32,000 bases of DNA from Candidatus Saccharimonadota bacterium. GTDB taxonomy: Bacteria > Patescibacteriota > Gracilibacteria > BD1-5 > UBA6164. Made by a program: the position numbers and the translations under genes. Below the pieces are notes generated by a model. It was given only the letters and a program-made list of their open reading frames with translations, was not told where the DNA came from and did not search any database. The stretch is taken from assembly GCA_965229705.1 (NCBI GenBank), contig OZ245922.1:150001-182000 (forward strand). Direction: 5' to 3'. How positions within the stretch are numbered: the first letter of the stretch is position 1; the number at the start of each line of letters is the position of its first letter. Shown in pieces: positions 1 through 32,000 of the stretch.

Positions 1-1
1 T

Positions 2-427
2 ATAGGAATGCAGACAACACTCAATATTCCTATTCTCGGATACGCAAACGCCGGTACGCCACTAGCAGTTGCTGAGAGTAATGACTATGGAACACTCCCT
101 ATCTCAAAAAATATTATCGGAGAAAATTCAGGAGAATACTTTGTACTACGAGTTTCATGAACAAGTATGAATGAGTGTGAAGTATCAGGGAAAAAGCTCG
201 AAAATGGGAGTTATGTTTTGATTAAGAAAGATGAACGAGTACTCAATGAGAGAGATCCTTTTTTGTTTATCGTAAACGGATGAGCGACTCTCAAGCGTTA
301 TAAGAAAAATGCATGACAAGTGTACCTTCTTCCACAGTCAAATGAAGACCATCATACTCCTATTATCCTCTCAGAATCTGATGAAGTATATCCAAGTGGA
401 AAGGTTGTAGATGTGTTTCACTTTTAG
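2..427 (+). CDS. lexA: LexA-like S24 peptidase repressor, C-terminal part (5' end outside window)
   Basis: Frame 2 reads ..IPILGYANAGTPLAVAE..GEYFVLRVSGTSMNE..NGSYVLIKKDE..FIVNGGATLKRYKK..LLPQSNE..GKVVDVFHF, with TAG stop at 425-427. It has the LexA layout: an Ala-Gly autocleavage site (ANAG), a Ser nucleophile motif (SGTSM) and a Lys in TLKRY. The Gly of SGTSM is TGA at 158-160. Confidence 0.65.
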
Positions 428-469
428 GGAAAAAGAAAAAACTTTGATTTTTGGCTAAAAACGATATAG

Positions 470-686
470 TGAAGCCTACGAAAGGCGTTTGAGTCTCGCT
501 GACACGGGACGAGCTAGAGGAAGAACCCCCTCTCTATACATAGTGATTACTAGGGATAGTAGAACCTCTCGGAGTCGAAATACTTCGTCAAAAAAATACA
601 ATTGAGTATCGTTTTTGGTGGCACCTTCATACCGTGTAATATTCTCGGATGACCAAAAGCACATGAATATTTTTCGTGTGTTTTTT
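470..686 (+). promoter_or_regulatory. T-box-like tRNA-sensing transcription attenuator (aspS leader)
   Basis: GGTGGCACC at 617-625 matches the T-box core GGUGGNACC. The proposed antiterminator has helix A1 (611-618 with 653-660), a 5'-side bulge UGGCACCU (619-626), and helix A2 (627-634 with 646-652). A competing terminator at 655-686 reuses the A1 3' strand. N=C fits a G73 discriminator as in tRNA-Asp. Candidate GAC specifier codons lie at 501-503 and 508-510. I could not fold Stem I convincingly by eye. Confidence 0.55.
655..686 (+). terminator. Intrinsic terminator of the aspS leader
   Basis: Stem CACATGAA (660-667) pairs with TTCGTGTG (673-680) with one G-U pair and loop TATTT. It can extend through AAAAG/TTTTT and is followed by a T6 run (681-686), 24 nt before the aspS ATG. 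Confidence 0.6.
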
Positions 687-709
687 ATATATAGAGTAAC
701 ACTATTTTT

Positions 710-2530
710 ATGCATAGAAGTCATAACTGTAATCAACTTACAGCAAAAAATATTTGAGAGCAAGTCATGCTTGCTTGATGGGTGAGTAACCGTCGAGATC
801 ATGGAGGAATTATTTTTATAGATCTCAGAGATCGTTATGGTCTGACACAAGTGGTGTTTGACCCAGAAGATGATACGGCGTCTTGGGAACTCGCAGACAG
901 TTTGAGATCAGAATATGTGATCAAGATTCAAGGAACAGTGAGGTCTCGACCAGACGGTCAGAATAACCCAAATATGTTTACGGGAGAAATAGAAGTCATT
1001 GTTTCACAGATAGAGCTTTTATCAAAATCAAAAACTCCTCCTTTTGAACTAGATGAACATGCTACCGAGGCAAAAGAAGATCTCAGACTCAAATATCGCT
1101 ATCTTGACATGAGAAGAAAGAAAATACACGACTTTATTGCCTTTCGTTCAGAGATGACGCACTATACACGAAACTGGTTTATACAGCGAGGCTTTTATGA
1201 TGTACAGACCCCTATTCTTGCAAACTCTTCTCCTGAGTGAGCGAGAGATTTTCTGGTACCGAGTCGGTTGAATCCGGGAACATTTTATGCGCTTCCTCAA
1301 GCACCTCAACAATTTAAGCAACTTCTTATGGTGTGAGGAATAGATAAATATTTTCAGATTGCTCCATGTTTTCGAGATGAAGACCCGCGAGCTGATAGAC
1401 ATGCCGGAGATTTTTATCAAGTGGATTGTGAAATGAGTTTTGTAGAACAGTCAGATATATTTGATGTGGTAGAGTCGTATATTCTCGATATAACACAAGA
1501 ACTCTCATCTCAAGAGATTCTTTCTGAAACTCCGTGAAAAGATACTCTCAGAGAAGGAGGAAAATTTTTTCTCCTTACTCATGAAGCAGCAATTGAAAAA
1601 TATGGTTCAGATAAACCAGATCTCCGCTATGGTATGGAACTCATGGATGTAGATGATATATTTGCTCGTAGTTCCAATGAGATATTCTCATCAATTGCTA
1701 CTGATAAGAAGAAAAATAGGATTAAAGCATTGAAAGTCTCAGGATGAGACACGGTATTTTCCAAAACACAGATGAAATGATTTGAGAGTTATGTGCGTCA
1801 GTTTGGAGCTCAATGACTTGGATATTTTCAGATGAAGGAGGATGGGCTGAAAGGACCACTTAATAAGTTTTTTGAAGAAAAAGATCTCAAAGAAATTGTT
1901 GAGAGAACAGAGCTTGAATTAGGAGATGTGATATTTTTTGGAGCAGGGGAAAGAGAACTTGTATGTCATTATATGGGAAAATTTCGAATATATCTTGCGG
2001 AGCTTCTTGACTTGCAAGATCCAAACACAATAGTGTTTTGTTGGATCACAGATTTTCCTATTTTTGAAAAAGACGAAGTTACCGGGAAGATAGACTTTGA
2101 ACACAATCCATTTTCGATGCCTCAGTGATGAGCAAGTGATTTTGAAAAAGAGGGAGATGAGCTTCTTAAAGTGAAAGGGTTTCAGTACGATCTTGCTTGT
2201 AATGGGTATGAGATACTCTCATGAGCTATTCGAAACCATGATATTGAGAGCCTTGTACAAGCTTTTGAAAAGGTTGGTAGGAGCGCAGATGAAGTGAGAG
2301 AAAAGTTTGGGGCTATGTATGAGGCTTTTCAGTATGGGGTCCCTCCTCATGGTGGATTTGCTATTGGTTTTGATAGGCTTATGATGATTTATTTGAACGA
2401 AGAAAATATTCGTGATATCTATGCTTTTCCAAAATCTGGAAGGGGAAAAGATGAGATGATGAACTCTCCAGTTACAGTTGATGATGATATGCTTGAAGAG
2501 TTAGGCTTAGAACTCTCTGTTTGAGAATAA
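710..2530 (+). CDS. aspS: Aspartate--tRNA ligase (606 aa)
   Basis: It starts [44 protein letters not shown]. It also contains [37 protein letters not shown] and [18 protein letters not shown]. Track fragments 782-1240, 1832-2128 and 2294-2524 are all in this frame and are joined by TGA=Gly. The true stop is TAA at 2528-2530. Confidence 0.95.
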
Positions 2531-2566
2531 AGGAAGCTCTGAGAAAATATTTCTTAAAAAGATTCT

Positions 2567-3583: not shown

Positions 3584-5068
3584 ATGTACGCAAAAGTAAC
3601 AATTATTGGTCGTCCAAATGTCGGAAAGTCGAGTATTTTTAATATGATGACGGGTCATAAAATCGCTATAGTTGCTGATGAGGCAGGAACAACACGGGAT
3701 ATATCAGAGTTTGAATATACAGATGAAAAACATGATCTCACATATATTCTTGCAGATTCTGGAGGACTTGATTATGGAAGTAGTGATGATGAAGTTGCAG
3801 AAGATATTGTAGAGAGAACAGAAAAGGCTATTGCAGAGAGTGATATACTCTTATGGGTGATAGAATATGATAGATTTACAAAGCTTGATGAAGATATTGC
3901 AAAAATCCTAAGAAAGGCAAAGAGAAACAATATCATCATACTTGCTAACAAAGCAGATAATAAGTCGCAAGTGATGGAGTCATGGAGTCAAGCAGGGAGA
4001 GGAGAAAAAGAGTTTTTCCCTGTATCAAGCTCACATAACTCTGGTCTGGGTGACGTGAAAAGATATATTGCAAAATTTCTCACAGAAAAATGACTCAACT
4101 ACAAAAAAGAACTTGATGATACTACACTCAAGATTGCATTTATTGGTCGTCCAAATGTTGGAAAATCTAGTCTCGTAAACGCTATTGTAGGATCACAAAG
4201 AGTCATGGTAAAAGATATGTCAGGAACAACTCGTGATGCTGTGGATACAAAGTTTACATACCTTCATAAAAAATTAGATATCAAAGCAAACTCTTCTCCT
4301 GAACAGAGAGATGAAGACGAATCTGTTGAGTTTACACTCATTGATACAGCTGGTATTCGGAGACTCTCAAAAGTATGAACACGAAATATTGAAAACTGGT
4401 CAGTGATGCGCAGTGAAAGAGCTCTCAGGAGAGCAGATGTTGTAGCGATAGTTATAGACGGGTTTGATGGAGTAGTACAGCAAGATCTTTCTCTTATCTC
4501 TGAAGCTATCGAAGAAAAAAAATGACTCATTATCATCGTAAATAAGTGGGATAAGGTTTTAGAGAAAGCTCGTCTCAATTCATCAACCTCGATGAGTGAT
4601 CAATCAGGTGCAAGTAAACAGGAAGAACAAGAGGAAAAATCAAAGATGATGCTCAAATATATCGACTACCTCAAAGAAAAGATAGAGTTTATATCATGGG
4701 CATCTATTATATTTACTTCAGCGACAGAGAAAAAAAGAGTAAGTGAGATACTTGATGAAGCGATAAGAATATCCGCAGAGAGAGGAAAGAGAGTGAAAAC
4801 AAGTATCATGAATGAGTTTCTAGAGCAGGCAGTATACCACCATCCACCAACAGGAAATAAAAAGTCTCATTCCCCCAAGATATATTATGGTTCTCAGGTA
4901 GATACTCATCCTCCGAAGTTTATTATTTCTGTGAATAATCCAGATCATTTTCACTTTTCCTACAAGCGTTATCTCGAAAATAAGATCAGAGACAATTTTG
5001 GTTTTGAGGGAACTCCTATAGTGATTGAGTATAAGGGGAGAGGAAAATATAAGGATGTGAAAAAATAA
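3584..5068 (+). CDS. der: Ribosome-associated GTPase Der/EngA (494 aa)
   Basis: It has two tandem G domains ([20 protein letters not shown] and [22 protein letters not shown]) and a KH-like C-terminus ([27 protein letters not shown]). Fragments 3584-4093 and 4592-5068 are in frame with no TAA/TAG between them. Confidence 0.9.
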
Positions 5069-5071
5069 TTA

Positions 5072-6064
5072 TTACCGTAAATACAAGCTTTTATTGTGTT
5101 CGTGTTCAGCGTTTGTCCGAGCGTAGTAAATCTGTCCAGTAAGAGTATCATGGAGATAGTAGTAGTACGGACTTTGTTTTGGAGAAATAACAGCTTCGAT
5201 ACTACTCAGGCTCGGGTTTCCTATCGGACCAGCTGGTAGACCAGTTTTTTGCCTCGTATTATACTCATTTTTATCATAGAGGTATTTTGTTACAGAAAGC
5301 TTGCATTCTTGAGAAGTGAGTCTATGGGCATAACATACCGTAATATCTGCTCATATTTTCCAGCCTTCATTGAGTCGTTTTTTTAGTATTCCTGCCACAA
5401 TGGGGCGTTCACTAGTATTTCGTTCTTCTTTTTCGACAATGCTTGCAAGTGTTATTATTTCATGAAAACTCCCGTCTTCTATTTCTCAAGAGAGAGAAGT
5501 TTGGGGGGAAATCTTTTTTTCAAAATTACTGAGCATTTTTCTTGCAAGTCACTCTACTTGAAAACTGCGAGGATTGACAGCGTAAGTATCTGGATAGAGA
5601 TATCCCTCAAGGGAAGAGATATTTTTGAGGAAGGGGTATTCACTTTCTAAGCTATGGTTTTCAGCGTAGGAAATAAAGTCAGAAGCTCAAATCAATCACT
5701 TGCTTGTGAGAAATGCGTCAATATCAAAGATATTCCATCACTCTAAAAATGTAAGAAAGATATCTCATTCATACTGAGGTTTTTCTAGATTTGCTATAAA
5801 CTGTTGTATATTTGATCATGAGGGAATCATATATTCTCCTGCTTGGAGTTCAAAACTGGGAGGATTATTCCTCAGATAGAGTTTTGTAAAAAAAGGTTTT
5901 TTTGTTTTTTCAGAGAGGATATGTGAGAAAGTAGTATTTTTTTTGACGGTAAAACTGGTTTCTTCGGTAAAGAGAATTTCATTTTTGTAGTTTGAATATT
6001 GCCAGGAGAATATAAGAAAAGTAAGAATAATGATTCAAAATCAGATTTTTATAGTATTGAACAT
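5072..6064 (-). CDS. mltG: Endolytic murein transglycosylase MltG/YceG-like (330 aa)
   Basis: It has an N-terminal TM segment (MFNTIKIGFGIIILTFLIFSW) and the family C-terminus NTRQKTGLPAGPIGNPSLSSIEAVISPKQSPYYYYL..YYARTNAEHEHN. The frame is open under code 25 (checked codon by codon). The gene is absent from the supplied track. Confidence 0.8.
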
Positions 6065-6159: not shown

Positions 6160-6195
6160 ATAATACTATAAGTACGTAAATAAAATTATATAAAT

Positions 6196-7413
6196 ATGAT
6201 AAAAAACAGCTTCCATGAGTGACTACCAGATGAAGATATAGTATCTTGAATACTGGATTTATCTCAAAGTTCAGATGCGATATTAGACATATCATCAGAA
6301 TTACTAAAAGAAGTTATTTGACAAGATAATGCAAAGAAAATTCTACGTGATATATTAGAGGAGATAACTTCAGGAGTAAATTTGCGAAAAGCGGGATATA
6401 ACAAGCCCATAGCAAGCATGATCTTTGCATGACCTAGTTGAGTAGGAAAAACACTACTTGCAAGAGTAACCCAAAAAATACTCAATAAGCATTTTTCTAA
6501 TGAAATTGAGATTATAAAAATCAACTGTGCTGATTTTGCAGGTGAGAGCATTTACGGTATCACAAGGCTTACATGAGCAAGTGCAGGATTTATTTGATCA
6601 GATAGAAAGCCTGTATTACATCCAGATAATGTAGAATGAAAAGGAAGAGTGATTTTACTCGATGAAATCGAAAAAGCTTGACCTGCCTTTTGGAATATTC
6701 TCCTCTCTATTCTTGATGATGGTACGCTCGATATTGATTACACAGAAACTAATAAAGAGAAAGCGGAACCTCTCATCCTTGATTGAAAAGCGGTAGATAG
6801 TACTGATATTTCATCACTTCGAACATTGTTTTGAGATAGTGTTATTATTATGACTTCAAATATTTGAAATGATGCAGTAGAAAAAGAATTGCAAGGTTTA
6901 GCTATAGGATTTTGATCATGAGAAAAAGATCCTGAAGATGTAGATATAGAGTCTATTATTCTACAGGAATTCTGAAAGCAGTTCAGAATTGAGATGCAGT
7001 GAAGATTTGATTATGTTGTCCATCTAGAGCATCTTACAAAAGATAATGCAAGAGATATAATAAATCAGCTGATCAATAGACTCAGTACTAATACTCTTTC
7101 AAAGTGAAATGGTTTTGTAATAGAGTTTACTAACGAAGCAAAAGAAAAAATTCTTGATGAAATAACAAATTCTCCTAGTTTTCGAAAGTTTGGATGAAGA
7201 TATATTGAATGATATTTCAAAAAGAATGTTATTCCTTATGTTGCAAAAGCGATAAATTCTTGAAAATTCAGAGAAGATGAGAATCATAGTTGTTTACTTG
7301 TTACTCTCCATAATGGAGAAATTGTATTTTCAAAGATTCCTATTTGAGAATCTAAAGAAGTAAAGATAAAAGTTGAAAAAACCTTGGGACGGCGTAATGA
7401 TTCTACTATATAG
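6196..7413 (+). CDS. Single-domain Clp/Hsp100 D2-like AAA+ ATPase with an IGF loop (405 aa)
   Basis: Motifs seen are VIGQDNAKKIL, Walker A FAGPSGVGKT (both Gly are TGA, 6430-6432 and 6439-6441), Walker B VILLDEIEKA and sensor-1 IIMTSNIG. There is an AIGFGSG tripeptide loop (IGF at 6904-6912) and FRIEMQGRFDYVVHLEHL, resembling FRPEFLNRID. There is no N-domain or D1 ring. It contains 21 in-frame TGA against 14 GGN codons, so no ORF appears in the track. Confidence 0.8.
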
Positions 7414-7483: not shown

Positions 7484-7783
7484 ATGCAAGAACAAGAAAA
7501 TCTTCATCTTCCACTTTTACTTGACCAAGACGAGGATGGAATCTGGGTTGCTGAGTCTCCTATTTTTGATGGATTCTTCACGCAGGGATACTCAAAAGAG
7601 GAGTTGCAAGATAACTTACAAGATTTATCAAATATGTATTTTGCTATGATAAAGGAGTGAAAGAAACCATTTAAGCATAGTTATCTTATTAGTTTACAAT
7701 ACAATAAAGATGGTAAAATTACCAATGATCTGAAGCAAGAAATTGATCAAACTTTTGAAAAAAAGATGATTTGAGCTTGTTAG
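7484..7783 (+). CDS. hicB: HicB-family antitoxin (99 aa under code 25)
   Basis: MQEQENLHLPLLLDQDEDGIWVAESPIFDGFFTQGYSKEELQDNLQDLSNMYFAMIKEGKKPF resembles the HicB/UPF0150 N-domain. With TGA=Gly the frame runs to TAG at 7781-7783, overlapping hicA by 74 nt. Confidence 0.7.
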
Positions 7784-7943
7784 ATCATCAGGAAGTCATC
7801 AACAATATATGTATGAAAATATCACTGTGACGGTTCCTGTTCATTGTGGAAAAGATATATGAAGGTGACTTTTGAGAGTTATCCTCAAACAAGCTGGTAT
7901 TTCTCATCAAGAGTTTTTAGATGAAGTTGGAGTCAGAAATTAA
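7710..7943 (+). CDS. hicA: HicA-family mRNA interferase toxin (77 aa)
   Basis: MVKLPMIGSKKLIKLLKKRGFELVRSSGSHQQYMYENITVTVPVHCGKDIGRGLLRVILKQAGISHQEFLDEV follows the HicA pattern (KLP..SGKE.IK.L.K.GF...R..GSH.......TVP.H.GK...G.L..IL.QAGI). The stop is TAA at 7941-7943. Confidence 0.8.
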
Positions 7944-8069: not shown

Positions 8070-11606
<3,537 letters not shown>

Positions 11607-16216: not shown

Positions 16217-17524
16217 TTAAATAACCCTCAGTATTTCCTCAATCGTAGTATATCCCTTAATTGCTTTCAAGATACCGTCTTCTTTCATTCGTATGAGATC
16301 TCCAATTCTTGCCTCAGCTACGATATCCTCAACACTTCATCCATGACGAATAATATCTCTGAGTTTTTCGTTTAGAGTAATAATTTCATATACTCCTATT
16401 CTTCACTTGTACCCAGAGTTTCCACACTTGCTGCAGCCTTTTCATTCATAGAGCTTCATATTTTTTGTTGAGAGAGCACTCATTCAGATATCATGTGTCA
16501 TGCTTTTTAAAAGTGTGAGATCTTCTTGCGTTTTTTCTTTTTCTTCTTTACAGTCAGGACATATTTTTCTCACAAGTCTTTGAGCTATTATTGTGTCAAG
16601 AGCACTTGCAAGAATATATGGTTGGAGTCCCATATTGATGATCCTATCAAGAGTATCTGCTGCTGATTTTGTATGGAGTGTTGAAAGCACGAGATGCCCA
16701 GTAAGTGAAGCAGATGTTGCGGTTTGGAGCGTCTCATAATCACGAATTTCTCATAGCATAATGATATCTGGATCTTGCCTCAGACAAGCATGTAAACCTG
16801 ACTGAAATGTGAGTCCATTTTTTTCATCAATTTCAGACTGAACAATACCCTCAAGCTCGTATTCGATAGGGTCCTCAAGAGTGATGATTTTTTTTAGACG
16901 AGTATTGAGTCTGTGGAGTATAGTATAGAGTGTGGTGGTTTTTCCTGATCCAGTCGGTCCTGTTACCAGTATCATTCCAGATTTGTTTTGTATAGCTCTT
17001 TCGAGCATTCTTTTAGATGTCCAGAAAAATCATAAGTCTTCAAAATCGACAATTGCTTTATGAGAGTCAAGTATACGGCATACAATATTTTCTCCATAGT
17101 GAATTGGCAGGGTAGAAACCCTGACATCTATCTTTCTGTCTTCATCAAGATGCATAGAATATTTTCCATCTTGAGGAATATTGGAGATATTCAGTTTGAG
17201 GCTTGCAGCATATTTGAGACGTTCAACTATTTTTTTGTATTCACTTTCACTCATATGAAAAATATCCACCAAAACTCCATCAATACGAAATCTTAATATT
17301 ACAGAACTTTCATAGCATTCATAGTGAATATCACTACTCCCAAACAGTAGTGCTCAGAGAGAAATATCTTTGAGTGCATCATCTGTTTTTTGTTTTGAGA
17401 GGTCTTCTTTTACTTTTTTTTCGAGCCGTATAAAACTCTCAGAAGTATAGCTTTTTTCTTCTAAGTTCTCTAAAACAACTCGTTTGAGCGTTTCTTCGTA
17501 GCTGATGTGAGTGTATTTTGACAT
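16217..17524 (-). CDS. pilB: GspE/PilB-family type IV pilus or type II secretion assembly ATPase, short form (435 aa)
   Basis: Motifs seen are Walker A LVTGPTGSGKTT, Walker B DPDIIMLGEIRD and His box LTGHLVLSTLHT. A tetracysteine cluster (CPDC...CSKCGNSGYKGRIGVYE) is typical of PilB/GspE rather than PilT. Track fragments 16484-16690, 16751-17008 and 17030-17272 are in the same frame. The frame was checked codon by codon. Confidence 0.8.
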
Positions 17525-17559
17525 ATTTTTATTTCATATAGGGAAATCTTAGCATATTT

Positions 17560-17587
17560 TTGCTCTGAATACAAAAAAACATATACT
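17560..17587 (+). promoter_or_regulatory. Putative promoter for the pta-like operon
   Basis: TTGCTC (17560-17565) and TATACT (17582-17587) are separated by 16 nt, 30 nt upstream of the ATG at 17618. This is a motif match only. Confidence 0.25.
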
Positions 17588-17617
17588 TCTTTGTATATTT
17601 TTGTAGTTTTTGCTCCA

Positions 17618-18512: not shown

Positions 18513-19379
18513 ATGGAACCTTGGATTATATGGGCAATTGCTTCAGCCCTTACGGGATGAATATATAACTTTGCCTATAAGATTATTAGTGAAGAGTGAT
18601 ATAATACACATCTTGCGGTTTTATATAGTTATACAGCATCAACTATACTGGCAGGTTTGTATTGTCTTTATACAGGGTCATTTTATATCTCATATGAGAT
18701 ACTTCTCATAACTTTTATATTTGCATTTATACATACCTCATTTTTTTATATATCAATTGTTGCAAGAGTAGAAGCAATGAAAAATATTGATACAGTAATA
18801 TTTTACCCTCTTTATAAGACTTTCTGACCTATTTTTGTTACTTGTATCAGCTTATTTTTCTTTTGAGAATATTTATCCTCGAGAGACTTCCTATGAATTG
18901 TACTCGGGATTTGTGTTCCTCTTTTACTCATTACCAAGACAGAAAATAAGATACAGAGAAATCTCTTATTATGAGTTATTTTGGTTATCATTACTTCCGT
19001 TGTAGCTTCTGCCTCATCTACTGCTACAAAGATGGTGTATATCAAAGAGGGAAGTCCAGAATTATTCTTATTTTTATGTCCCTTACTTTGAATGATTTTT
19101 TCGTATCTTGTGTATCATTTACATTCTAAAAAAACGGGAAAAGTTTATAAAACTAAGTGACTACCAAAGTTTGCTTTGATGGTATGAGTAATCCATATAT
19201 TTGCGTTTTATACCTTTATTAGAGCATTTGAGTGAAATACAGCAATAGCATTTACGATAAATTCTTTTTCAATACTTGTTCCTATCACGCTCTCAATTAT
19301 ATTTTATGGAGAACACTTTAGCATGAAGAAGTGATGTGTTATAGCTCTGTCTATTGTTTCTATTTTACTATTTCTGTAA
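18513..19379 (+). CDS. EamA/DMT-like multi-pass membrane transporter (288 aa)
   Basis: It has about 10 predicted hydrophobic helices in two similar halves (MEPWIIWAIASALTGGIYNFAYK... and ...AIAFTINSFSILVPITLSIIFYGEHFS). The frame is open under code 25 (checked). The gene is absent from the track. Confidence 0.6.
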
Positions 19380-19388: not shown

Positions 19389-19940
19389 ATGAGATGTTCT
19401 TGGGTAAAAGGCGATAACCAACTCTCTATCAAGTATCATGATGAAGAGTGGTGAGTTCCTGTATATGATGACAGAGTCTTATTTGAGTTTCTGATACTTG
19501 AATGAGCACAGGCCTGACTCAGCTGGGAAACAGTTTTGAAAAAGCGAGAAAATTATAGAAAAGCTTTTGATCAGTTTGATTATGAAAAAATAGCCCAATA
19601 TGATGAGAGAAAAAAAGAAGAACTTCTCAGTAATGAGGGAATTATTCGAAATAGGCTCAAGATAAACTCGGCTGTGAAAAATGCAAAAGTGTTTATAGAG
19701 ATACGAAAAGAATATGAAACATTTTCAAACTATTTGTGGGGATATGTCAGTGGGCAGCAAGTCATACATTATCCCAAAAATCTTTCACAAGTTCCTGTCT
19801 CAACAGAGCTTTCTGACAAGATTTCCAAAGATTTGAAAAAAAGAGGAATGAGTTTTGTCGGAACGACTATCATATATGCCTATCTTCAAGCGGTATGAGT
19901 TATAGATGATCATATCATAGGTTGTTGTTGTAAGAAATAG
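19389..19940 (+). CDS. tag: DNA-3-methyladenine glycosylase I (183 aa)
   Basis: MRCSWVKGDNQLSIKYHDEEWGVPVYDDRVLFEFLILEGAQAGLSWETVLKKRENYRKAFDQFD...IIRNRLKINSAV...LKKRGMSFVGTTIIYAYLQAVGVIDDH matches the Tag signature. Several conserved Gly residues are TGA. Confidence 0.85.
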
Positions 19941-20049: not shown

Positions 20050-20289
20050 ATGAATTCACAAATTGTTGCAAATATTGATAGCGAATTAAAAGAAAAAGCT
20101 ATGAAAATGGCAAAAAAAGAGGGACTTACTATGAAGGCACTTCTCAGTTTTCTCCTCAAGTGATACACACAAGAAAAAATTACACTCACTACTACTTCCT
20201 CTTTTGAGAGAAACTATTGTAATATTGAAGTAGAGGAATTGTCTCAGCAAGAGGAAGATATTATAGCTCAAAGCTCAAAAATGCAGTAA
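20050..20289 (+). CDS. RelB/DinJ-like ribbon-helix-helix protein (79 aa)
   Basis: MNSQIVANIDSELKEKAMKMAKKEGLTMKALLSFLLKGYTQEKITL resembles the DinJ/RelB RHH N-domain. No RelE/YafQ-type toxin is adjacent. The stop lies 2 nt before the ABC ATPase start. Confidence 0.55.
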
Positions 20290-20291: not shown

Positions 20292-21203
20292 ATGGAAAAA
20301 GTATTAGAAATACAAAATCTCAAAAAATCCTATGGGAAACTCGAAGTACTCAAATGAGTCAATCTCTCTGTATGAGAGGGAGACTTTTATGCTCTTTTAG
20401 GTCATAATGGAGCAGGGAAATCTACCACAATAGGGATTATGACCAGTCTTGTGAATAAAAATAGTGGAGTAGTACAGATATGAGGAATAGATATAGATAC
20501 AGATTTCTCCAAGGCAAAAAAATATATTTGAGTCGTGCCTCAAGAGTATAACTTTGATATTTTTGCAAAAGTATCAGATATATGTCTCTTCGCTGCAGGA
20601 TTTTATGGTATCCCGAGAAAAACCGCAGAACAAAGACTCGAAAAATACCTCAAAAAACTCGAACTCTGGGATAAGAGAAATGTCCCAGCAAAAGAACTTT
20701 CAGGATGAATGAAGCGTCGACTCATGATTGCTCGGGCACTCATGCACGAACCAAAGATACTCGTACTCGATGAACCTACAGCAGGAGTAGATGTTGAGCT
20801 GAGAAAGACTATGTGGGAATTTATACAAGAGCTCAATACGCAAGGGACAACCATCATCCTCACAACGCATTATCTCGAAGAGGTAGAACAACTTTGCAAG
20901 AATGTTGCGATACTCACTGACGGACATATCGTATATGAATGATGAGTAAAATCACTCTTAAAAACACTTGATGAAGAAGTATTTGTTCTTGATCTCAAAC
21001 ATGAACTTTGAGAAATACCAAAACGATTTTCTCAGTACAGTCCAAAACTGGTAGACTCTACAACTCTCGAACTTTCGGTAAAATCACAGGAAAGCGTCAA
21101 TGAAATATTTTCAGTTTTAACACAGAAGGGAGTAAAAGTCCTTTCTATGAGAAATAAATCCAATAGACTAGAACAGCTGTTTTTGAAGCTAGCAAAGGGA
21201 TAA
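20292..21203 (+). CDS. ABC transporter ATP-binding protein, ABC-2 exporter type (303 aa)
   Basis: It has Walker A GHNGAGKST, the signature LSGGMKRRL (second Gly is TGA at 20706-20708), Walker B ILVLDEPTAGVD and the H-loop TTHYLEE. Confidence 0.9.
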
Positions 21204-22083: not shown

Positions 22084-22689
22084 ATGAAACAACAAGTCAT
22101 ATTTTTCCCCTGAGCTGTTCCAAAAGAAAACTGGGACTCATACTATGATTTTCTCTGAAATATTGAGTATGATCCATACGAAGAAAAGCTTCTCAACTGG
22201 AATAAAACCCTTTGAAAAGAACTGTGAGACGAGTACGAATATCTAAGAGTTCCATATGGAGAAATAAAGTTTGCAGATTATACTGCATGGAAAATCATGT
22301 TTGAAAAACTCCTGCCTTTCATCAGAGAAAATCCTATTATTGTTAGCACTTCACTTGGGAGTAGCTTTATCTTGAAATATATCTGAGAAAATGAATTTCC
22401 CCGAAAAATCAAAAAACTTTTTCTGATTGCTCCAGCAATTCATGATACCCCACAAGAAAAACTCGGGACATTTTGACTGAATATAGAAGATATCTACTAC
22501 AAAGTCAGTCGATGGGCAGAAAAAATATATATTTATCATAGTAGGGACGATGATCTGGTTCCTTTTGAACAGTCTCTTCATCTCGCAACTTTTTTTCCTG
22601 AAGCAACTTTTCGCGATTTTGATGATAGGGGACACTTTTTCCTTGAGGAAAAAATCCTTGAACTTGAAGAAGATATACAGAGAGATTAA
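22084..22689 (+). CDS. Alpha/beta serine hydrolase, YdeN/RBBP9-like (201 aa)
   Basis: It has a nucleophile-elbow-like IVSTSLGSSF, an acid residue in YHSRDDDLVPF and a His in DDRGHFF. Its size and motif order match the small Ser_hydrolase family. It contains six in-frame TGA codons and is absent from the track. Confidence 0.6.
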
Positions 22690-22710
22690 GAAAGCTCTGA
22701 TGAAAAAGCC

Positions 22711-22741
22711 AAAAACATCTTGCCCGAAGGTGTTTTTTTTA
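22711..22741 (+). terminator. Intrinsic terminator
   Basis: A stem pairs ACATCTT (22715-22721) with AAGGTGT (22727-22733) with one G-U pair and loop GCCCG. A T7-8 run follows. Confidence 0.65.
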
Positions 22742-22842
22742 TATGCTTATTCATAATCTGTCATTCTTTCGGGAAGCATAAAAAATATGAAAAACTTATA
22801 TTTCTCTCCTTTCGTAAAAAAGTGAGATTTTGAATATCAATT

Positions 22843-23706
22843 ATGAAAAAAATAAAAAAATGCGTTATTCCAGCAGCATGAATGGGAACTCGATTTCTTC
22901 CTGCCACAAAAGCTCTTCCCAAAGAAATGTTTCCGATTGTAGATAAACCGGTGATGCAGTACTTGGTAGAAGAAGCAATTGCTGCAGGTTGTGAAGAAAT
23001 CATTATTGTGACAGGAAGAAGTAAAAGAGCGATAGAAGATCACTTTGACTCTAACCCTGAACTCGAACAAAGACTCGATAGTTCATGAAAATTTGACTAT
23101 CTCAAAAAAGTAAAAAGCCTCAACGAAATGGTAAATATTGTATATGTTCGCCAACCTTATCCAAAATGAGATGGAGACGCGATTCTTCGTACAAAAAACC
23201 TTATTGGAGACGAACCATTTCTCGTACTTTTTGGGGATGATATTATTGACCATGAAATAAGTGCTGCAGAGCAACTGGTAGACAAGTATTATGAAAAAAA
23301 TGCTCCTATCATTGCTACCATGCAAGTAGATAGAGAACTCGTCTCAAACTATGGAATCATCGAGTGACATACCCAAGAAAAAATAACGAAAGTTACAAGA
23401 TTTTTAGAGAAACCACAAGCTCAAGAAACATCGTCTCAAACAGCGGTTATCGGAAAATATGTTCTTTCTCCAGATATTTTTTGTTATCTTGAAAAGTCAT
23501 ATTCATCTACAGGAGATGGAGAGATTCGTCTCGCAGATGCCTTTATACAGATGCTCTGAGAAAGAGATATTTATGGTGTGCAAGTAGATGGAGTTCGCTA
23601 TGATACAGGTAGCAAGATAGGGTATCTTGAGGCTTGTATTGCCTACGCGATGAAGGATTCGGAAATTGCAAGAGAGCTCAGAGATTTTCTCAGTAGATAT
23701 AGCTAA
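22843..23706 (+). CDS. galU: UTP--glucose-1-phosphate uridylyltransferase (287 aa)
   Basis: [45 protein letters not shown] matches the GalU N-terminal signature; the first Gly of GMGTR is TGA at 22879-22881. It also has VRQPYPKGDGDAIL and KYVLSPDIF. The frame was checked codon by codon. Confidence 0.9.
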
Positions 23707-23717: not shown

Positions 23718-24875
23718 ATGAAAAAAATAGTCACTATCTGATGAGGAAATGGCCAGTCTCATTTATTGGATGCATTTTATACCTACGCTTCAAGAAAATA
23801 CAAAATATCTACCATTGTCTCTATGAGCGATGACTGACGAACAACAGGAGAACTGATGAATATATTTTCCAATGAACTCGGTACATACCTTCCTCCTCCC
23901 TGAGACTTGCGTCGCTGTCTCTTTATGATGTCTTCCTCTCCTAAACGAGAAGAATTTCAAAAATATCTCGAAACACCTGCGTGTCAAGACATACAAATAT
24001 CTTCATTGAAAATAGAGGATTATTTTTCCCTTGTTGGGGCTGATGTATCTTTTTTACAACATCTCACATCTATGATATCTTCTTTTAAGTATGAGAAAGA
24101 TATTTGTGACTTTATACTTCCTCTCAACTCTTCTATTTTGGGTCATAAGATGGGGAATATACTTATGGCAAACCTTTTTTATAACCTTCAAAAAGATTAT
24201 AAGAAAATGCTGCAGTTTATGCATCATATACTGGAGGTTGAGGCCCATATTATTCCTGTGACCACACAGAGAGCTACTATTCGAGCAATACTATGAAATG
24301 GTCAGGTAGTAGAGTCCCAAAATAGGATATCAAATGTTGCTCACTACTCAAGTGGGATAGCAGATCTCCAGCTCGTAGATGACCCAAAAAATGTATATCA
24401 AGACAAAGATGTTTCAAAAGTGATACATAGTGCAGATTATATTGTGATTTCTCCGGGAGATCTCTTTACATCTATTATTTCAAACTTTGTTATTTGAGGA
24501 GTGAGAGAGGCAATCATGCAGAGTCAGGCGCGGGTAATATATATATGAAATAGTACCAATAAGTGATGAGAGACACAGTGACTGACCTGTCTTGATTTTA
24601 TTAGTAAAATAGAAAGATTTCTTGGGAGAAAAATAGATGCATATATATGCAATAACAAAAAACGACATCTCTCGGATCAAGAAAAACAAGTATTTCGTGA
24701 ACATCGTTCTATTAAAGGGTGAGATTTTTTATATCTCTCTGATAGAGAGAGATCAGAGCTTCGGAGAAGAAATATAGCTCTGTTTGAGTCTGATCTATTA
24801 GATACAAAGAGCCTCTATAAACATGACAAAAAGAAACTTATAGAGCTCATAGAAAGTGTCATGGATTGTATGTAA
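23718..24875 (+). CDS. yvcK: YvcK/CofD-family (UPF0052) protein (385 aa)
   Basis: It contains MKKIVTIGGGNGQSHLL (two TGA Gly at 23739-23744), VSMSDDGRTTGEL, GHKMGNILMANL and ISPGDLFTSIISNFVIGGV. The frame is open under code 25 (checked). Confidence 0.8.
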
Positions 24876-25493: not shown

Positions 25494-26948
25494 TTATTGC
25501 GTAAAATTTTCTATTTCTTCTTGCGCTGCGAAGTAAAATTCATCCTGAAACTGACTTGCAAGAATTTTTTTAAAAAGCGTGAGAGCTTGGCTTGATTCTC
25601 ACATATCTTGTTTGAGATATCATAGATTGAGTAAGAGAAAAGCATCTTGAGAGTCTTTTTCGTATCACTTCATCAGTATATCTTGAGCCGCATCTAACTC
25701 TCATCTTTCTCTGAGTATCCATCAATGATAGGTATAAAAATCTGTTTCATCAGGAAATCTCTCTGAGAGTTCTTGAGTCAAGCGTAGAGCAGTATCTGTT
25801 TCATCATGGAGTATATGATAATATACTGCGAGAGATCCATCTTCTGCATCATAGTCAGTTTCTTCTGTTAGAATATCTCGAAATACTCAGAGCATTTTTT
25901 TATAGCTGCCAACTTCTTGAAAATTTTGTATCATGTATCTTCTTACATTGAGGCTATCTGAAATATCGAGCTTAAGGGCATTAGAAAAAAATATATTTGC
26001 TAGGACAAAGTCTTTGAGTTTTGTATTACATATTCCGAGTAAATACTGTACTCACGGATCACTGCTATCTTTTTCATTATACATATTGAGGTATTTTCTG
26101 GCGTTAGCGTATTCTCAGATTTGAAAATAACTTTGAGCAACTATCTTTATTACTGATAGATAATCGGTCTTCTCTTCTAGTATCTGTTTCCCCGTCTCTT
26201 TACTGAGGCTATAAAAACTATTTGCATACCACGCTCATATAATATAGGCTTTTTTGAGGGCTTCATCTGTAAGTTGAAAATTGTTGTAGTTTTGTAGTGC
26301 TTGTTCTATACTCTTGAGTTTTTGTGACTCAAGAAAACCTGGAACTCATACTCAAGCAATAAAATAGTCTTCAAACTCTTTCTGACACTCGTCAAAGTTA
26401 TAACTACATAAAATACTTGTTTCATAGTAAAACATATCCTCTGAAGAGAGTTTGAATTTTTGTATTTCTTTGAGGAAAAATTCTGTTTTTGTTGCTTGTG
26501 AAAAATCAAGAGTTTTTTCTAGGATTCATAGATATGCTTCACGACTTTCAGTATCAAATACCTCAATTTTATTATAGTATTTTATAGCATTTTCGTACTT
26601 TCCCATAGTCTCATAGCTTTTTGCTATCTTTTTGAGAATGAGAGTATCATTTGGATTTTGAGCGTAAAAATCAAGATATTTCTTGAGTGCGATAGCGGTC
26701 TGTCATTCTTGCATATAGCGATCTCACTGTATAATGAGTCCCTTGAGCGCTAGACGGTTACGCACAATCTGCATCTGAGTTTGTATATCTTCTTGTGAGA
26801 GAGAATTTTGTTTTTCTCAAGAGTTTTCCTTATATGTTTCTGAATGTTTGGAGTCTTGTATGTTTTCTCAATGAAAAAATCAGAACCATATACCACCTCA
26901 GACAATGATCAGAGCTATACCAGCAGAAAGCAAAACTTTAGGATTCAT
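25494..26948 (-). CDS. Membrane-anchored TPR-repeat protein (484 aa)
   Basis: It has an N-terminal TM segment (MNPKVLLSAGIALIIVGGGIWFGFF). Repeated TPR-like helices follow, for example AIALKKYLDFYAQNPNDTLILKKIAKSYETMGKYENAIKYYNKI and AQSYFQIGEYANARKYLNMY. The frame was checked codon by codon. The gene is absent from the track. Confidence 0.65.
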
Positions 26949-27046
26949 ATTGTGTGTATTTTTACAAAAAAGGTATGTCGATCTTCTCAGATATATGAGA
27001 AGAAAAAAAATAGATTTTACAGATGGAATATTCTTTTATATAGTAG

Positions 27047-28549
27047 ATGTATGCAATATTTTTGCAAGGTATTAGATTTTTATTTCCTCGACATTTGTAT
27101 AAAAAAATAGCCTCAAATACTCTTTTCCAGGTACTGACAAAAGTATGTACAGCGCTTATATCTATCCTGCTTTTGAGTATCCTCACAAAAAATCTTTCCG
27201 TAGAATATTTTGGAATATATAACAAAGTATTTCAGTATCTTGGGATTTTTATCTTTCTTGCGGATTTGTGACTCTATACGATTGCTATTCGCGAGATAGG
27301 GAAGTATCCAAAAAATACAGAAAAAATCATCGGAAATATCCTCTCTCTTAGGTTGGTACTGGCAAGTTTTATATGGTGAGTTGCTCTTATTATTGCCTCT
27401 TTTCTTCCATGATTTTCATCGTCACTGGTACTGTGGAGTATTTTTATTGTTTGAGCCTTTAGCTTTGTGAGCCTTATTAACTCGTCTTTACTGGCCTTGA
27501 TGCAGTCACAAATGAAAATGGAATTTTCTTTCATATCTACCGTATCAGGAAAGATTCTCAACCTTATAGCAGTGAGTGTGGTATGTATGTATATGCTTGA
27601 TGTATGAGAGGGGAGAGTACTGTTATGCATCTTCACCATAGCCACACTTTCTCTCATCGTGACAACATACATGAACTATCTCTATGCAAGAAATATTTGT
27701 AGTATCAGACTCCTATGGGATAGGGAATACATATATCATATTTTCCGTATTTCTCTTCCTTATGGTATAGCGCTCTTTTTATCAGTAGTGTATTTTAAGA
27801 TAGATGTTATTATGCTATGAATTTTAGAGTGAGAAGGAGCAAACACTTCAATAGCTCTCTATTCTTTGCCGATGAAGATTATTGAAGTTTTGATGGTTGT
27901 GTGAGGATTTTATCTCAATTCTCTCCTGCCAACTTTGACACAAAAGATTCATAATCATATATCAGAGGTTCAAGAGATAGTCAGGCTTTCATGTAAATTT
28001 CTCGGAAGTCTTGGTATATGTATATATGTATTCTCAGTACTATTTTGATGAAGTATCCTGACTCTGATTGCTACTCCAGAATACCTCACAGCTCTTCCAT
28101 TTAACTCATACGATGTGTTTATTTTGAGTTCGGGGGTACTACTGTTTCACTTTTTGGCTCTTATTTTTATATATTTACTGATTGCCAAAGAACAACAATC
28201 TCAGCTTTTGAAGATCAATGCTATTATTACCTGCGTAAATATTGCTCTCAATAGTATACTTATACCGCAATTTTCTTTTTACTGAGCTGGAATAGCGACA
28301 CTGATTTCACAAGCTCTTTTGTGTATGATATGTTACGGAAGCATTGGGAGAATGTATATTTCTTTTTTGAGACTTTGACAGTCGATCATTCCGAGTATTC
28401 TGCTTGGGGTGAGTATCTATGTTCTTGGAATTTTTCTGATAGAACGTATGAGTTTTGGAGATGTGGGGAATATGTTTCTTCTCGCGCCACTACTTTTTTG
28501 TATTTATTTGTGATGAGAGTATCTGCTCTTTACTCGATCACGCCACTAA
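27047..28549 (+). CDS. MOP-superfamily polysaccharide/oligosaccharide flippase, Wzx-like (500 aa)
   Basis: It has about 14 hydrophobic helices. The N-terminus (KKIASNTLFQVLTKVCTALISILLLSILTKNLSVEYFGIYNKVFQYLGIFIFLADLGLYTIAIREI) is typical of Polysacc_synt proteins. The frame is open from 27047 to TAA at 28547-28549 (checked). Confidence 0.75.
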
Positions 28550-29093
28550 GCATATCAAAGTGAACTTCCTCTGAAAACTGAGCATTTCCATATCGAACTA
28601 TAGCACGACTTGGAAAATCAATAGCATTCATGCTTTCATCATCACAACTGAGGATATCTCCTTTTGCTCATCTAAATATTATTTCTATTTCTGCCATCTT
28701 TACTTGAGGAACATCACTTCGCCCAAGGCATGAAAGTGACAGAAAAGACATTCAAGACGGAGCTTTCCATCTAAGGTACTCTGTATAAGAAACTTTGTCA
28801 AGACTGTAGTATGATTGTATCGTACTTTTAGGGTTTTGTGAAAAAACGATTTTCCACAACTCAGGACTTTGAGGAGGATTTCATGCTCATTTTCAGGTAA
28901 GAGCATTATTTCGTACTTCTTCACTTATGTTGATAATTTGGAGAATATCATTCTCAAGTTTTTGTTTTGTATTTTGTTCACGGAAGTTAAAGCTTCCTAC
29001 TCATACAGCAATAATACATATTATAATTATCACAATAACAATTTCTATGAGTGTGTATCATTTTTTTTGAGGAGAGAGTAACCACTGTTTCAT
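28530..29093 (-). CDS. Type IV pilin / pseudopilin with a prepilin-peptidase signal (187 aa)
   Basis: The N-terminus MKQWLLSPQKKGYTLIEIVIVIIIICIIAV has a class III signal: short basic leader, G(-1), an aromatic at +1, E(+5) and a hydrophobic helix. G(-1) is encoded by TGA at 29058-29060. The frame was checked. It differs from the track ORF 28700-28924. Confidence 0.7.
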
Positions 29094-29197: not shown

Positions 29198-30133
29198 ATG
29201 AAATATTTTCTTTCTTCTATATGCTGACTTTTTTTGTTTTTGGGTTTCATGCAGATATCTAGCGCGTCTGATGCTCCTGTAAATCTCTATCTTGAGTCTC
29301 GAAGTGATTCTCAAATAGAAGTATCATGGGATCCTGTAGAAGGGGCTCTCGGATACTATATATACTATGGACAGAGTTCATGACAAGATGGACTCTATGA
29401 TGTAGAGGGTATTGAACTAATAGAAACAGCGGAATATACTCTTTGAGATTTGCAGCCAGATACGCAGTACTATATTGCTCTTACGGCTCTTGATGACACA
29501 GGAAAAGAGTCATCATACTCTGAGGAGCTTGCTGCTCAGACATTGGCTTTTGGACAAGCATCGCAAGTAGAGGAACTGAGACTGGTAGTAACAGAGGTTG
29601 TTTCGGTAAATGAAATCATGCTTGAGTTTTCAAAAAGTCTTGATAATACTGATGAGACGCGTCGAGAGTTTATACTTGTTGATTCTCTGCAGTGAAGAGA
29701 GATCATGATAGAAGAGACGCGTCTTGATGAAGAGAAACCACATCTTCTCTTTCTTACTTTGGAGTCCTCACTTTTTCCTGAGACACAATATGATATTACC
29801 ATACTTGATATTCTTGCTGTCGATGGGGCAACAATAGAACAATGAGTAGAATGATTTTGAAGCTTTGTCACTCCAGAGATTTTTCCAGAAAGCAATATGT
29901 GAGATGAGTTATTACCCGAGTTGAGCTCTGCTCCAGAAGAAAATAACCAAGATGTTGTAGAAGAAAGCTCTCAGTGAACAACACAAACTTCCTCACAAGA
30001 AGAGCAATGACAATGAGTAAATGAGGTTGCCGCTGAAACATCAAAACTTCCCGATACGGGAACAGAACATATTCTCCTGCTCATCATTGCAGCGATTGCT
30101 GGACTAGGATTGTATACGAGAATGAGAAAATAA
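29198..30133 (+). CDS. Secreted FN3-domain surface protein with an LPXTG sortase sorting signal (311 aa)
   Basis: It has a signal peptide (MKYFLSSICGLFLFLGFMQISSA) and an FN3-like domain (PVNLYLESRSDSQIEVSWDPVEGALGYYIYYG...YTLGDLQPDTQYYIALTALDDTGKESSYS). A second beta-rich domain and an acidic/polar linker follow. It ends with LPDTG (30047-30061), a TM segment (HILLLIIAAIAGLGLY) and an RMRK tail. Confidence 0.75.
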
Positions 30134-30138
30134 ATACC

Positions 30139-30178
30139 AAAAAAATAAATCCGAGCTCTACAGCTCGGATTTATTTTT
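30139..30178. terminator. Bidirectional intrinsic terminator between convergent genes
   Basis: An 11-bp stem pairs AAATCCGAGCT (30147-30157) with AGCTCGGATTT (30162-30172) around loop CTAC. It is flanked by an A-run upstream and a T-run downstream. Confidence 0.7.
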
Positions 30179-30560
30179 ATACTTCGTTGAGCATTTTCAG
30201 AATTTCATCTGGATCTTCTTCTGTTTCGCTCTTGTCAGCTGCTTTGGCAGCTGCTACTTTCTTTTTTCCTTCTTTTACCTGCATCTCCTGCCACTCAATC
30301 AGATGTTTCTCGTTAAGAGACTTAATCTCTTTTTGGTATTTTGTTTCGAGCTCTTGGAGCTTTTTTCTTTCTGTATCAAGTATATCATAGAGTCTGTCTA
30401 TTTGGGTATCATTCATTGATGGCATGATATCAAACCAGTACTGTCTCTCATCATGGTCCATAGATTCTGTTGCGAGAATGAGCTCTATGAGCTCAGGGAA
30501 TTTTGCCTGCATCTCATCGGATACTTGAAAGGTTTTATCTCCTTTTTTTAGTTCAGCCAT
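30177..30560 (-). CDS. Hypothetical coiled-coil protein (127 aa)
   Basis: This is an uninterrupted ORF in the track: MAELKKGDKTFQVSDEMQAKFPELIELILATESMDHDERQYWFDIMPSMNDTQIDRLYDILDTERKKLQELE... It has a charged C-terminus. I recognise no family. Confidence 0.6.
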   Translation of the reverse strand: MAELKKGDKTFQVSDEMQAKFPELIELILATESMDHDERQYWFDIMPSMNDTQIDRLYDILDTERKKLQELETKYQKEIKSLNEKHLIEWQEMQVKEGKKKVAAAKAADKSETEEDPDEILKMLNEV

Positions 30561-30668
30561 AATTTTTTATAAAAATACATATTTTTCATTATATCACGAG
30601 CCTGAATTATTTGCAAAAAAAAATACTCTCTCTATACTTTTTTTATTGAATTATTAACTTTTTACACT

Positions 30669-30917
30669 ATGTTTTTTGTATATATAGGCATATATGTATT
30701 TATACTTTTATTCTTGTGGGGGTTTTTTCTCATAGCACGCCATCACAGCTTCAAATTTCAGAGATTTAGTACCAATATAGTTCCTGTGACAAATTTTTTG
30801 ATGATATTTCTTTTGATATTATCACTTTTGGGTTTTGTTCTCATACTTTCTCTTGACCGATGAACATCGCAGCTGCGTATAGATATGACGCGACCTCAAG
30901 ATATATCATACTACTAA
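30669..30917 (+). CDS. Small membrane protein (82 aa)
   Basis: It has two hydrophobic helices (MFFVYIGIYVFILLFLWGFFLIA and NFLMIFLLILSLLGFVLILSL). The track ORF 30669-30863 extends through one TGA to TAA at 30915-30917. Confidence 0.45.
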
Positions 30918-30933
30918 TACTTTCTTGATATTT

Positions 30934-32000
30934 ATGAGTACACAGAAAATACTATTTGCTATTATTGGAATTATCTTCATTTGAGCTCTTTTTTTTCTTA
31001 TGAGCGTTTTGACCTCATGACAAGGATCAAAATCAGTATCAGCCACACAGTGAAAATTTACTGTATGGATACTCAGTGACGATGCTGGAGATTTTCAGTC
31101 ATATTTATGATATTTTAAAGAAGCTTTCCCACAATATCGTTCCAAAAACATTGTTGTGGAAAGTTTTTTGGATATGCAAACATATAAGAATACTCTCATA
31201 TCAGCAATAGGGAGTGAAAAAGCGCCAGATGTTTTTATGCTTCCTGCATGAGAAGAGTCTATATTTGAAAACTTTATTGCCTGAGTTGATCCTGAGAGAG
31301 TGAGTCCGAGCGACTTTCGTTTAGCATTTCGAGAAAATTTTTCTCAAGACCTTATTGTCAGTACTGATGATGATACACGAGAGTTTTTGAGATGAGTTCC
31401 AGCATGATACGAGACTTTGTGATTTTTTTATAATAGAAAATATTTTCTCAAACCTTCTGAACTCAACTCATGGAATGATATAGAAAAAGAAATACAAAAC
31501 ATATCTTACAAGCATTCAAACATTGTTCCTCTTGCTCTTTGAGCCACAAGTGGGATGTTGCACTTGAGCGATATCCTTGGAGCATTTTTTGTCCTTGATG
31601 GAGTGAGGGATCTCTGACAAATACCAAATACGACAGTGAAGCAGTGATTAGCTCAATATCTTTCTTATGGAGATCGTTCTTGATCGAATGGTTATGACGC
31701 TGTAAAAAATCGTTATCCTGATAAGACGGAACTGGATTTTTTTGTAGAGGGGGAGGTCGCTGCTATGATTTGATATCCAAGAGACCTCTTTGCTATTGAT
31801 AGCGTTGGGTATCAGAAGAGTTTTTTGTTTGTGCGTCCTTTTCCACAATATGCTTCGGAGTTTTCTGAAAAAAAGATTTTTGCGAAATACAATTTTTTTG
31901 CGACACATAAAGACACACAGTTTTATGATATGGCGCAAGATTTTCTTTCTTTTGTCGTATCTCAAACAGGACAGGAAAAATACATAGAAACTTTTCCGCA
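30934..32000 (+). CDS. Membrane-anchored ABC-type extracellular solute-binding protein, family-1-like (3' end outside window)
   Basis: It has an N-terminal TM anchor (MSTQKILFAIIGIIFIGALFFLMSV). An SBP-like body follows: KFTVWILSDDAGDFQSYLGYFKEAFPQY.., APDVFMLPAGEE, GVPAGYETLGFFYNRKYF and EVAAMIGYPRDL. The frame is open to the window end with many TGA codons (checked). Confidence 0.7.

Follow-up and report, generated by a model that had tools for sequence, protein, structure and literature searches.

UGA as a sense codon, very probably for glycine, in a 32-kb stretch of a putative Gracilibacteria genome

Genes and reading frames of the window

The window, by which we mean the whole stretch of 32,000 nucleotides analyzed here (contig OZ245922.1, positions 150,001 to 182,000), was studied for the meaning of UGA in its protein-coding genes. 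UGA is a sense codon that is read through in every gene of the window but one, and UAA and UAG are the only terminators; the amino acid inserted at UGA is very probably glycine. The GC content of the window is 35.7% and, under NCBI translation table 11 (the standard code), its longest stop-to-stop frame is 226 amino acids (aa). This maximum rises to 1348 aa when TGA is freed as sense. Since freeing TAG or TAA leaves it at 226 or 266 aa, respectively, the lengthening of frames is specific to TGA. Translation through TGA yields 28 genes that tile 93% of the window and are listed below with their in-frame TGA codons (for some genes against the number of GGN glycine codons) and stop codons.

2–427, plus strand: LexA-like S24 peptidase domain, 5'-truncated by the window (Pfam Peptidase_S24, E = 9e-16); 3 TGA, including 158–160; stop TAG
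710–2530, plus: aspS, aspartyl-tRNA synthetase (AspRS; Pfam tRNA-synt_2, E = 1e-104, spanning all TGA); 12 TGA, including 1238–1240; stop TAA
2567–3478, plus: corA (Pfam CorA, profile 3–292 of 292); 2 TGA; stop TAG
3584–5068, plus: der/engA (Pfam MMR_HSR1 twice and KH_dom-like); 3 TGA; two CGG at Arg positions; stop TAA
5072–6064, minus: mltG/yceG (Pfam YceG, E = 6e-58); 10 TGA against 9 GGN; no in-frame table-11 open reading frame (ORF) of at least 60 aa; stop TAA
6196–7413, plus: stand-alone ATPase of the AAA+ class, ClpB/ClpC-D2-like (Pfam AAA_2 and ClpB_D2-small); 21 TGA against 14 GGN, including Walker A 6430–6432 and 6439–6441; stop TAG
7484–7783, plus: hicB-like ORF, name unconfirmed (code-25 ORF, no Pfam or NCBIfam match); 2 TGA; 74-nt overlap with hicA; stop TAG
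7710–7943, plus: hicA toxin (Pfam HicA_toxin, E = 3.7e-21); 4 TGA in 77 codons; stop TAA
8070–11606, plus: rpoB (tblastn against 70 standard-code loci); 15 TGA, including 9096–9098; stop TAA
11759–15778, plus: rpoC (tblastn against 77 standard-code loci); 16 TGA; stop TAG
15855–16136, plus: hypothetical 93-aa gene (code-25 ORF only, no family match in Pfam or NCBIfam); 3 TGA; stop TAG
16217–17524, minus: pilB-type T2SSE ATPase (Pfam T2SSE, E = 2e-117); 7 TGA; stop TAA
17618–18511, plus: PTA_PTB-like protein, C-terminal two thirds of a phosphate acyltransferase fold (Pfam PTA_PTB, profile 102–317 of 319); 9 TGA; stop TAG
18513–19379, plus: EamA/DMT transporter (Pfam EamA); 11 TGA against 7 GGN; no in-frame table-11 ORF; stop TAA
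19389–19940, plus: tag, 3-methyladenine glycosylase I (Pfam Adenine_glyco, profile 1–176 of 177); 4 TGA; stop TAG
20050–20289, plus: small, weakly RelB/DinJ-like ORF (NCBIfam matches far under cut-off); 1 TGA; stop TAA
20292–21203, plus: ABC transporter ATPase (Pfam ABC_tran); 8 TGA, including 20706–20708 (second G of LSGG); stop TAA
21261–22016, plus: ABC-2 permease (Pfam ABC2_membrane, E = 2e-37); 7 TGA; stop TAA
22084–22689, plus: alpha/beta serine hydrolase (Pfam Ser_hydrolase); 6 TGA against 4 GGN; no in-frame table-11 ORF; stop TAA
22843–23706, plus: galU (alignment to GalU and YngB in the PDB); 5 TGA, including 22879–22881; stop TAA
23718–24875, plus: yvcK/CofD family (Pfam CofD); 11 TGA, including a tandem pair at 23739–23744; stop TAA
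24915–25490, minus: hypothetical 191-aa gene (code-25 ORF, no Pfam match); 6 TGA against 3 GGN; stop TAG
25494–26948, minus: TPR protein (Pfam TPR families); 18 TGA against 10 GGN; no in-frame table-11 ORF; stop TAA
27047–28549, plus: flippase-type Polysacc_synt membrane protein (Pfam Polysacc_synt); 14 TGA; stop TAA
28530–29093, minus: type IV pilin-like protein (Pfam N_methyl; NCBIfam TIGR02532 IV_pilin_GFxxxE); 7 TGA, including G(-1) at 29058–29060; stop TAA
29198–30133, plus: fn3 surface protein with an LPDTG-like C-terminal signal (Pfam fn3); 11 TGA; stop TAA
30177–30560, minus: hypothetical 127-aa gene, the sole gene without TGA (2 Gly codons only), its exact sequence present in a public protein collection; stop TAA
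30934–31998, plus: solute-binding protein (SBP), 3'-truncated by the window (Pfam SBP_bac_8, E = 4e-9); 14 TGA against 12 GGN; no in-frame table-11 ORF

Over 9929 codons, the coding frame of these genes contains 230 TGA, spread over 27 of the 28 genes, and neither TAA nor TAG; in the other two frames of the same genes, each of the three triplets occurs at 9–52 per 1000. An earlier note on this DNA, made from the letters alone, had claimed that the genes end in TAA or TAG. This applies to each of the 27 genes whose 3' end lies in the window (18 TAA, 9 TAG), and these ends coincide with those of the family profiles. The TGA codons are distributed uniformly along the genes (KS p = 0.60) with no pile-up near gene ends, and none coincides with a gene end. 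As can be seen from the Pfam matches, domains continue at full length across TGA codons (AspRS, E = 1e-104; T2SSE, E = 2e-117; CorA, 3–292 of 292; Adenine_glyco, 1–176 of 177).

Under table 11, each conserved gene looks broken, as would be expected if UGA were still a stop and the window held pseudogenes or sequencing and assembly errors, or if UGA encoded selenocysteine. Decay or error, however, is expected to strike all three stops as well as the frame, whereas the interruptions are exclusively TGA and are accompanied by no frameshifts, and the affected genes include the essential rpoB, rpoC, aspS and der. Selenocysteine would align to Cys or selenocysteine, but Cys occupies only one of the 1980 aligned cells examined below, and 230 sites are far above any selenoproteome. 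We consider both forms of this explanation vanishingly improbable.

For the annotation of the window, the consequences are severe. A list of table-11 ORFs of at least 60 aa (94 ORFs), used as a proxy for the ORF track from which the earlier note was made, contains 34 ORFs in frame with a real gene, and the other 60 are spurious; 13 of the 28 genes are lost altogether and the others are broken into pieces. The nine genes named as having no ORF in the correct frame (mltG, the AAA+ ATPase, hicB, hicA, the DMT transporter, the hydrolase, the TPR protein, the pilin and the SBP) indeed have none on the proxy list, and four more were found, namely the truncated lexA and three genes that are small or hypothetical. 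A further statement, that several ORFs continue beyond a standard-code stop into neighboring genes, cannot literally apply under table 11. What is present are off-frame table-11 ORFs straddling gene borders (e.g. 22550–22756, 26844–27110 and 4969–5151) and stop-to-stop frames that, with TGA as sense, reach upstream of the true start (e.g. 22690–23706 for galU, which starts at 22843).

The residue at UGA positions

Proteins of the window were aligned to solved structures (PDB) with TGA masked as X. In AspRS, X falls on G in PEGARD, GWV, AQGL and LSGAIR; in GalU, aligned to GalU and YngB, on G of AGMGTR/AGLGTR, KGK and PLGLG; and in the LexA-like domain, the codon at 158–160 falls on G of 'GDSM', the G that precedes the catalytic Ser. 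Alignment of YvcK to UPF0052 proteins places the tandem XX on GG of IGGGTG, and single X residues on G of DDG and PPGD. The AAA+ protein has X on G of GPTGVGKT, VIGQ, VGAPPGYVG and SNVG of the ClpC D2 domain, and the ABC ATPase has X on G of LSGGM and SGGN. The TGA at the pilin G(-1) position lies within the TIGR02532 match (residues 10–32, 26.1 bits against a cut-off of 16.3). Ten TGA codons of the window had been placed in motifs by the earlier note, and all ten coordinates are correct, in frame and within the motifs quoted, nine on the plus strand and that of the pilin on the minus strand: RVS[TGA]TSM in LexA, SPE[TGA]ARDF in AspRS, A[TGA]PS[TGA]VGKT in the AAA+ protein, RSV[TGA]EL in RpoB, LSG[TGA]M in the ABC ATPase, AA[TGA]MGTR in GalU, I[TGA][TGA]GNG in YvcK and KK[TGA]YTLIE in the pilin. 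Its count of TGA and GGN codons in the AAA+ gene was likewise exact. By alignment, UGA occupies glycine positions, including invariant catalytic ones.

The residue was assessed statistically with RpoB and RpoC, in which TGA was again masked as X, by comparison with 80 loci from species-representative genomes. Three of these, a Candidatus Gracilibacteria metagenome-assembled genome (MAG), an SR1 MAG and a Spiroplasma, were set aside because they contain multiple in-frame TGA codons, leaving 77 standard-code genomes. The 31 TGA columns comprise 1980 aligned cells, of which 1076 are Gly, two Trp and one Cys; Gly thus makes up 54% of these cells, against a background of 7.6%. It is the commonest residue in 17 of the 31 columns and reaches at least 80% in 14, and Trp is the commonest in none. 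In rpoB, 8 of the 15 TGA columns are near-exclusively Gly, including the column of 9096–9098 (G in 59 of 59), and in rpoC, 9 of 16 are Gly-plurality columns, two of them with G in 77 of 77. For reference, the window's GGN columns hold 73% Gly and its TGG columns 71% Trp. With emission models built from the residue spectra seen at unambiguous codons of the window itself, the best-fitting residue for TGA was Gly, by more than 1600 nats.

The same data bear on the reading of UGA as tryptophan (table 4), known from Mycoplasma, Spiroplasma and several insect endosymbionts. With these systems the window shares a sense UGA in an AT-rich, reduced genome, for which loss of release factor 2 (RF2) is the presumed enabling step. 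Table 4 recovers long ORFs equally well and was evidently chosen by an automated gene caller, considering that the public Tag protein carries W at the TGA positions. However, Trp scores ~3800 nats below Gly, and the window has its own Trp codon, TGG, which aligns to W in six of six conserved columns. A tryptophan reading would also swap G for W in the Walker A, LSGG, GxGTR and GGGxG motifs and would raise the Trp content to an implausible 2.9%; with TGA as Gly, the glycine content is 6.9%. The earlier note had argued for Gly over Trp from the motifs, and a tabulation of residues by TGA column, which it had proposed, now bears this out; alignment of these columns mainly to Trp, which would speak against glycine, was not seen. 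We therefore regard UGA as glycine in the window and as tryptophan in table 4 organisms, and the application of table 4 here as very improbable.

A codon-level alignment of rpoC was made against the Gracilibacteria locus (L001), the SR1 locus (L039) and locus L079. The TGA codons of Spiroplasma, which uses code 4, pair with window TGG rather than TGA (six cases) and serve as a built-in control. At the 31 window TGA codons of rpoB and rpoC, the Gracilibacteria MAG has GGN in 22 and TGA in two (24 of 31), and in-frame TGA of this MAG and of the SR1 MAG pairs with GGA, GGT or TGA of the window.

Lineage, decoding and the other codons

The best match of the window's RpoC is that of the Gracilibacteria MAG (64% identity); all other loci show 49% or less, with the SR1 MAG at 43%. 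In-frame TGA at Gly sites is also seen in this nearest relative. The RpoC match points to chromosomal DNA from a source bacterium of Gracilibacteria (BD1-5) type within the Candidate Phyla Radiation. UGA is decoded as glycine in Gracilibacteria and SR1, for which a tRNA-Gly(UCA) is expected (PMC8629427); glycine at UGA has been shown by proteomics in another BD1-5 bacterium (PMC4032931), and prfB, the gene for RF2, was missing in every BD1-5 genome available at the time (PMC6851277). Following this work on the clade, UGA in the source organism would be decoded by a tRNA-Gly(UCA) with identity elements G1:C72, C2:G71, G3:C70 and U73, loss of RF2 would leave no competitor for UGA at the ribosomal A site, and UAA and UAG would both be handled by release factor 1. 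UGA codons probably arose from GGA by a single first-position G-to-T change, a drift that is possible because only one change is needed and the genome is AT-rich; such a route agrees with the finding that most window UGA codons are GGA or GGN in the nearest relative.

Several searches were made for the components of this mechanism. An Rfam scan of the window gave no match, and prfB is not in the window, which, as 32 kb of ~1 Mb, is uninformative on RF2 loss. A tRNA with anticodon UCA was found neither in the code-25 loci L001 and L039, which have no tRNA at all, nor in any of the 80 rpoC loci. A guessed pattern (CTTCAAA, spacer, GTTCRANNC, eight free bases, CGCT) gave, among the matches listed from metagenome contigs, only chance matches, a result that is uninformative on the existence of the tRNA; none of 120 loci had a tRNA of anticodon UCA.

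Some points weigh against this explanation or temper it. The lineage placement derives from a single marker protein, the amino acid inserted in the source organism itself is read from homology, and a tRNA gene search of the 32-kb window found none, so that no tRNA-Gly(UCA) lies there. In addition, ~45% of the RpoB and RpoC TGA columns are variable, with Gly in the minority among distant homologues, which have Asp, Ala, Pro or Ser. GGN codons are also found at variable sites, however, with conserved-G columns accounting for 59% of GGN and 45% of TGA (Fisher p = 0.17). Taking these points together with the alignments, we assign a probability of about 0.96 to the explanation as a whole, a Gracilibacteria-type genome in which UGA is an ordinary glycine codon and UAA and UAG are the only stops.

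A related possibility is that decoding is ambiguous, UGA being mostly glycine with appreciable termination or near-cognate Trp insertion, and that the U34-containing tRNA(UCA) may misread UGG, giving a 'leaky' code. In the BD1-5 bacterium studied by proteomics, the peptides covering UGA comprised 40 to 97 with Gly and rare ones with Trp, Ala, Asp or Lys (PMC4032931), and wobble at U34 might blur the distinction between UGA and UGG, as has been noted (PMC8629427). UGA usage could be seen in the same light: its share of Gly codons by gene ranges from 10% (der) up to 67%, with der, rpoB and rpoC at 10–16% and mltG, the AAA+, DMT, TPR and hydrolase genes and one hypothetical gene at 53–67%, so that the less conserved genes use UGA more than rpoB, rpoC and der do. 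On the other hand, the fraction of UGA codons at invariant catalytic glycines comes close to that of GGN, which would be costly under sloppy decoding, and UGA neither clusters near gene ends nor terminates any gene. Appreciable ambiguity thus appears very improbable to us, and UGA is taken as glycine below.

In the RpoB and RpoC alignments, a codon-by-codon table showed that all codons other than TGA keep their standard meaning. Since CGA and CGG are predicted to encode Trp in Absconditabacteria, and CGG in some Gracilibacteria (Shulgina and Eddy 2021, PMC8629427), these two codons were considered separately. Among 9956 window codons, there are 74 CGA and 12 CGG. The 26 CGA codons in rpoB and rpoC are all at Arg-type columns, and all 13 conserved columns in which CGA occurs are Arg columns. 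All 12 CGG are outside rpoB and rpoC. The CGG sample is small, with four of the 12 inspected and three clearly tested: the CGG in LVPSR of AspRS aligns to Arg in three of three structures, those at aa 38 and aa 259 of Der both align to R in PDB EngA, and that of YvcK aligns to Arg in one structure and to Glu in the other. An SR1-type CGA/CGG = Trp code was therefore rejected for the window. As CGA and, in this small sample, CGG are read as Arg, the window uses plain table 25 and not the SR1 variant. The rpoB and rpoC genes of the SR1 MAG (L039 6196–13789) contain no CGA and no CGG, which, together with the Arg-type CGA of the window, fits a published reassignment that is confined to SR1 and absent here. 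The extended code of Absconditabacteria (SR1), a related lineage, thus shares UGA = Gly with the window but differs in that CGA and CGG are predicted to encode Trp there, whereas CGA is common and encodes Arg in the window.

Individual genes and meaning for annotation and lineage

A number of genes deserve comment in their own right. The names HicA, SBP and pilin given in the earlier note are confirmed by family models; 'hicB' is not, since the 99-codon ORF at 7484–7783, which stands in antitoxin position before hicA (7710–7943), matched no HicB family model in Pfam or NCBIfam. The hicA pair lies directly upstream of rpoB, a position usually occupied by ribosomal protein genes. The AAA+ ATPase (6196–7413, 405 aa), whose TGA load is among the highest in the window, resembles only the D2 and small domains of ClpC/ClpB and has no N-domain and no D1. 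Two type IV pilus parts, the PilB-type ATPase (16217–17524) and the GFxxxE pilin (28530–29093), are located 11 kb apart on the minus strand; pilC, pilM-Q and a prepilin peptidase gene are not in the window. In the PTA_PTB-like gene, the upstream part of the stop-to-stop frame (17474–17617) overlaps the beginning of the oppositely oriented pilB; given this overlap and the partial profile match, its true start and function are uncertain. The fn3 protein (29198–30133) has a signal peptide and, at its C-terminus, 'LPDTG' followed by hydrophobic residues and the tail RMRK, an arrangement that resembles a sortase (LPXTG) sorting signal; the NCBIfam LPXTG_anchor model scores 14.5 bits, just below its cut-off of 15.9.

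We conclude that both the observation of a sense UGA and its interpretation as glycine hold. The reassignment was known before and forms NCBI table 25, as the earlier note had itself recognized in treating it as context rather than novelty (PMC8629427, PMC4032931, PMC6851277). Its description goes back to Campbell 2013, Rinke 2013 and Hanke 2014, as cited in PMC8629427 and PMC4032931. With the table 25 (SR1/Gracilibacteria) code, the window shares UGA as Gly, UAA and UAG as sole stops, low GC and interchange of UGA and GGN among relatives. Products predicted with table 11 or table 4 are both wrong, and other findings from the window need re-evaluation with table 25. An exact-sequence look-up illustrates this: the public protein collection holds Tag (19389–19940) only as the TGA = Trp translation, and the table-25 version is absent; this protein and that of the 127-aa gene are found on one NCBI/ENA contig of 1,006,762 bp. 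Hence, automated gene calling has put Trp-for-Gly errors in the public catalogue.

Compared to the table 25 genomes sampled, the window shows no qualitative difference, but it uses more UGA. UGA makes up 15.9% of the Gly codons of rpoB and rpoC combined, against 2.6% in the Gracilibacteria MAG (L001 786–8614) and 5.1% in the SR1 MAG, a usage 3 to 6 times that of these nearest Gracilibacteria and SR1 genomes. The source lineage could therefore use UGA more heavily, although a comparison with only two reference genomes does not suffice to call this unusual. The window is thus a further example of the reassignment reported in 2013–2014, with two small additions, the retention of CGA and CGG as Arg and a heavier use of UGA than in the two relatives sampled. 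UGA accounts for 34% of the window's glycine codons, for the majority in fast-evolving genes, and is found at invariant catalytic glycines, raising the rather doubtful possibility that the source lineage is unusually far along in UGA capture. If this were true genome-wide, with the tRNA-Gly set or the discrimination between UGA and UGG changed, the organism would offer a naturally occurring case of stop-codon capture at a late stage.

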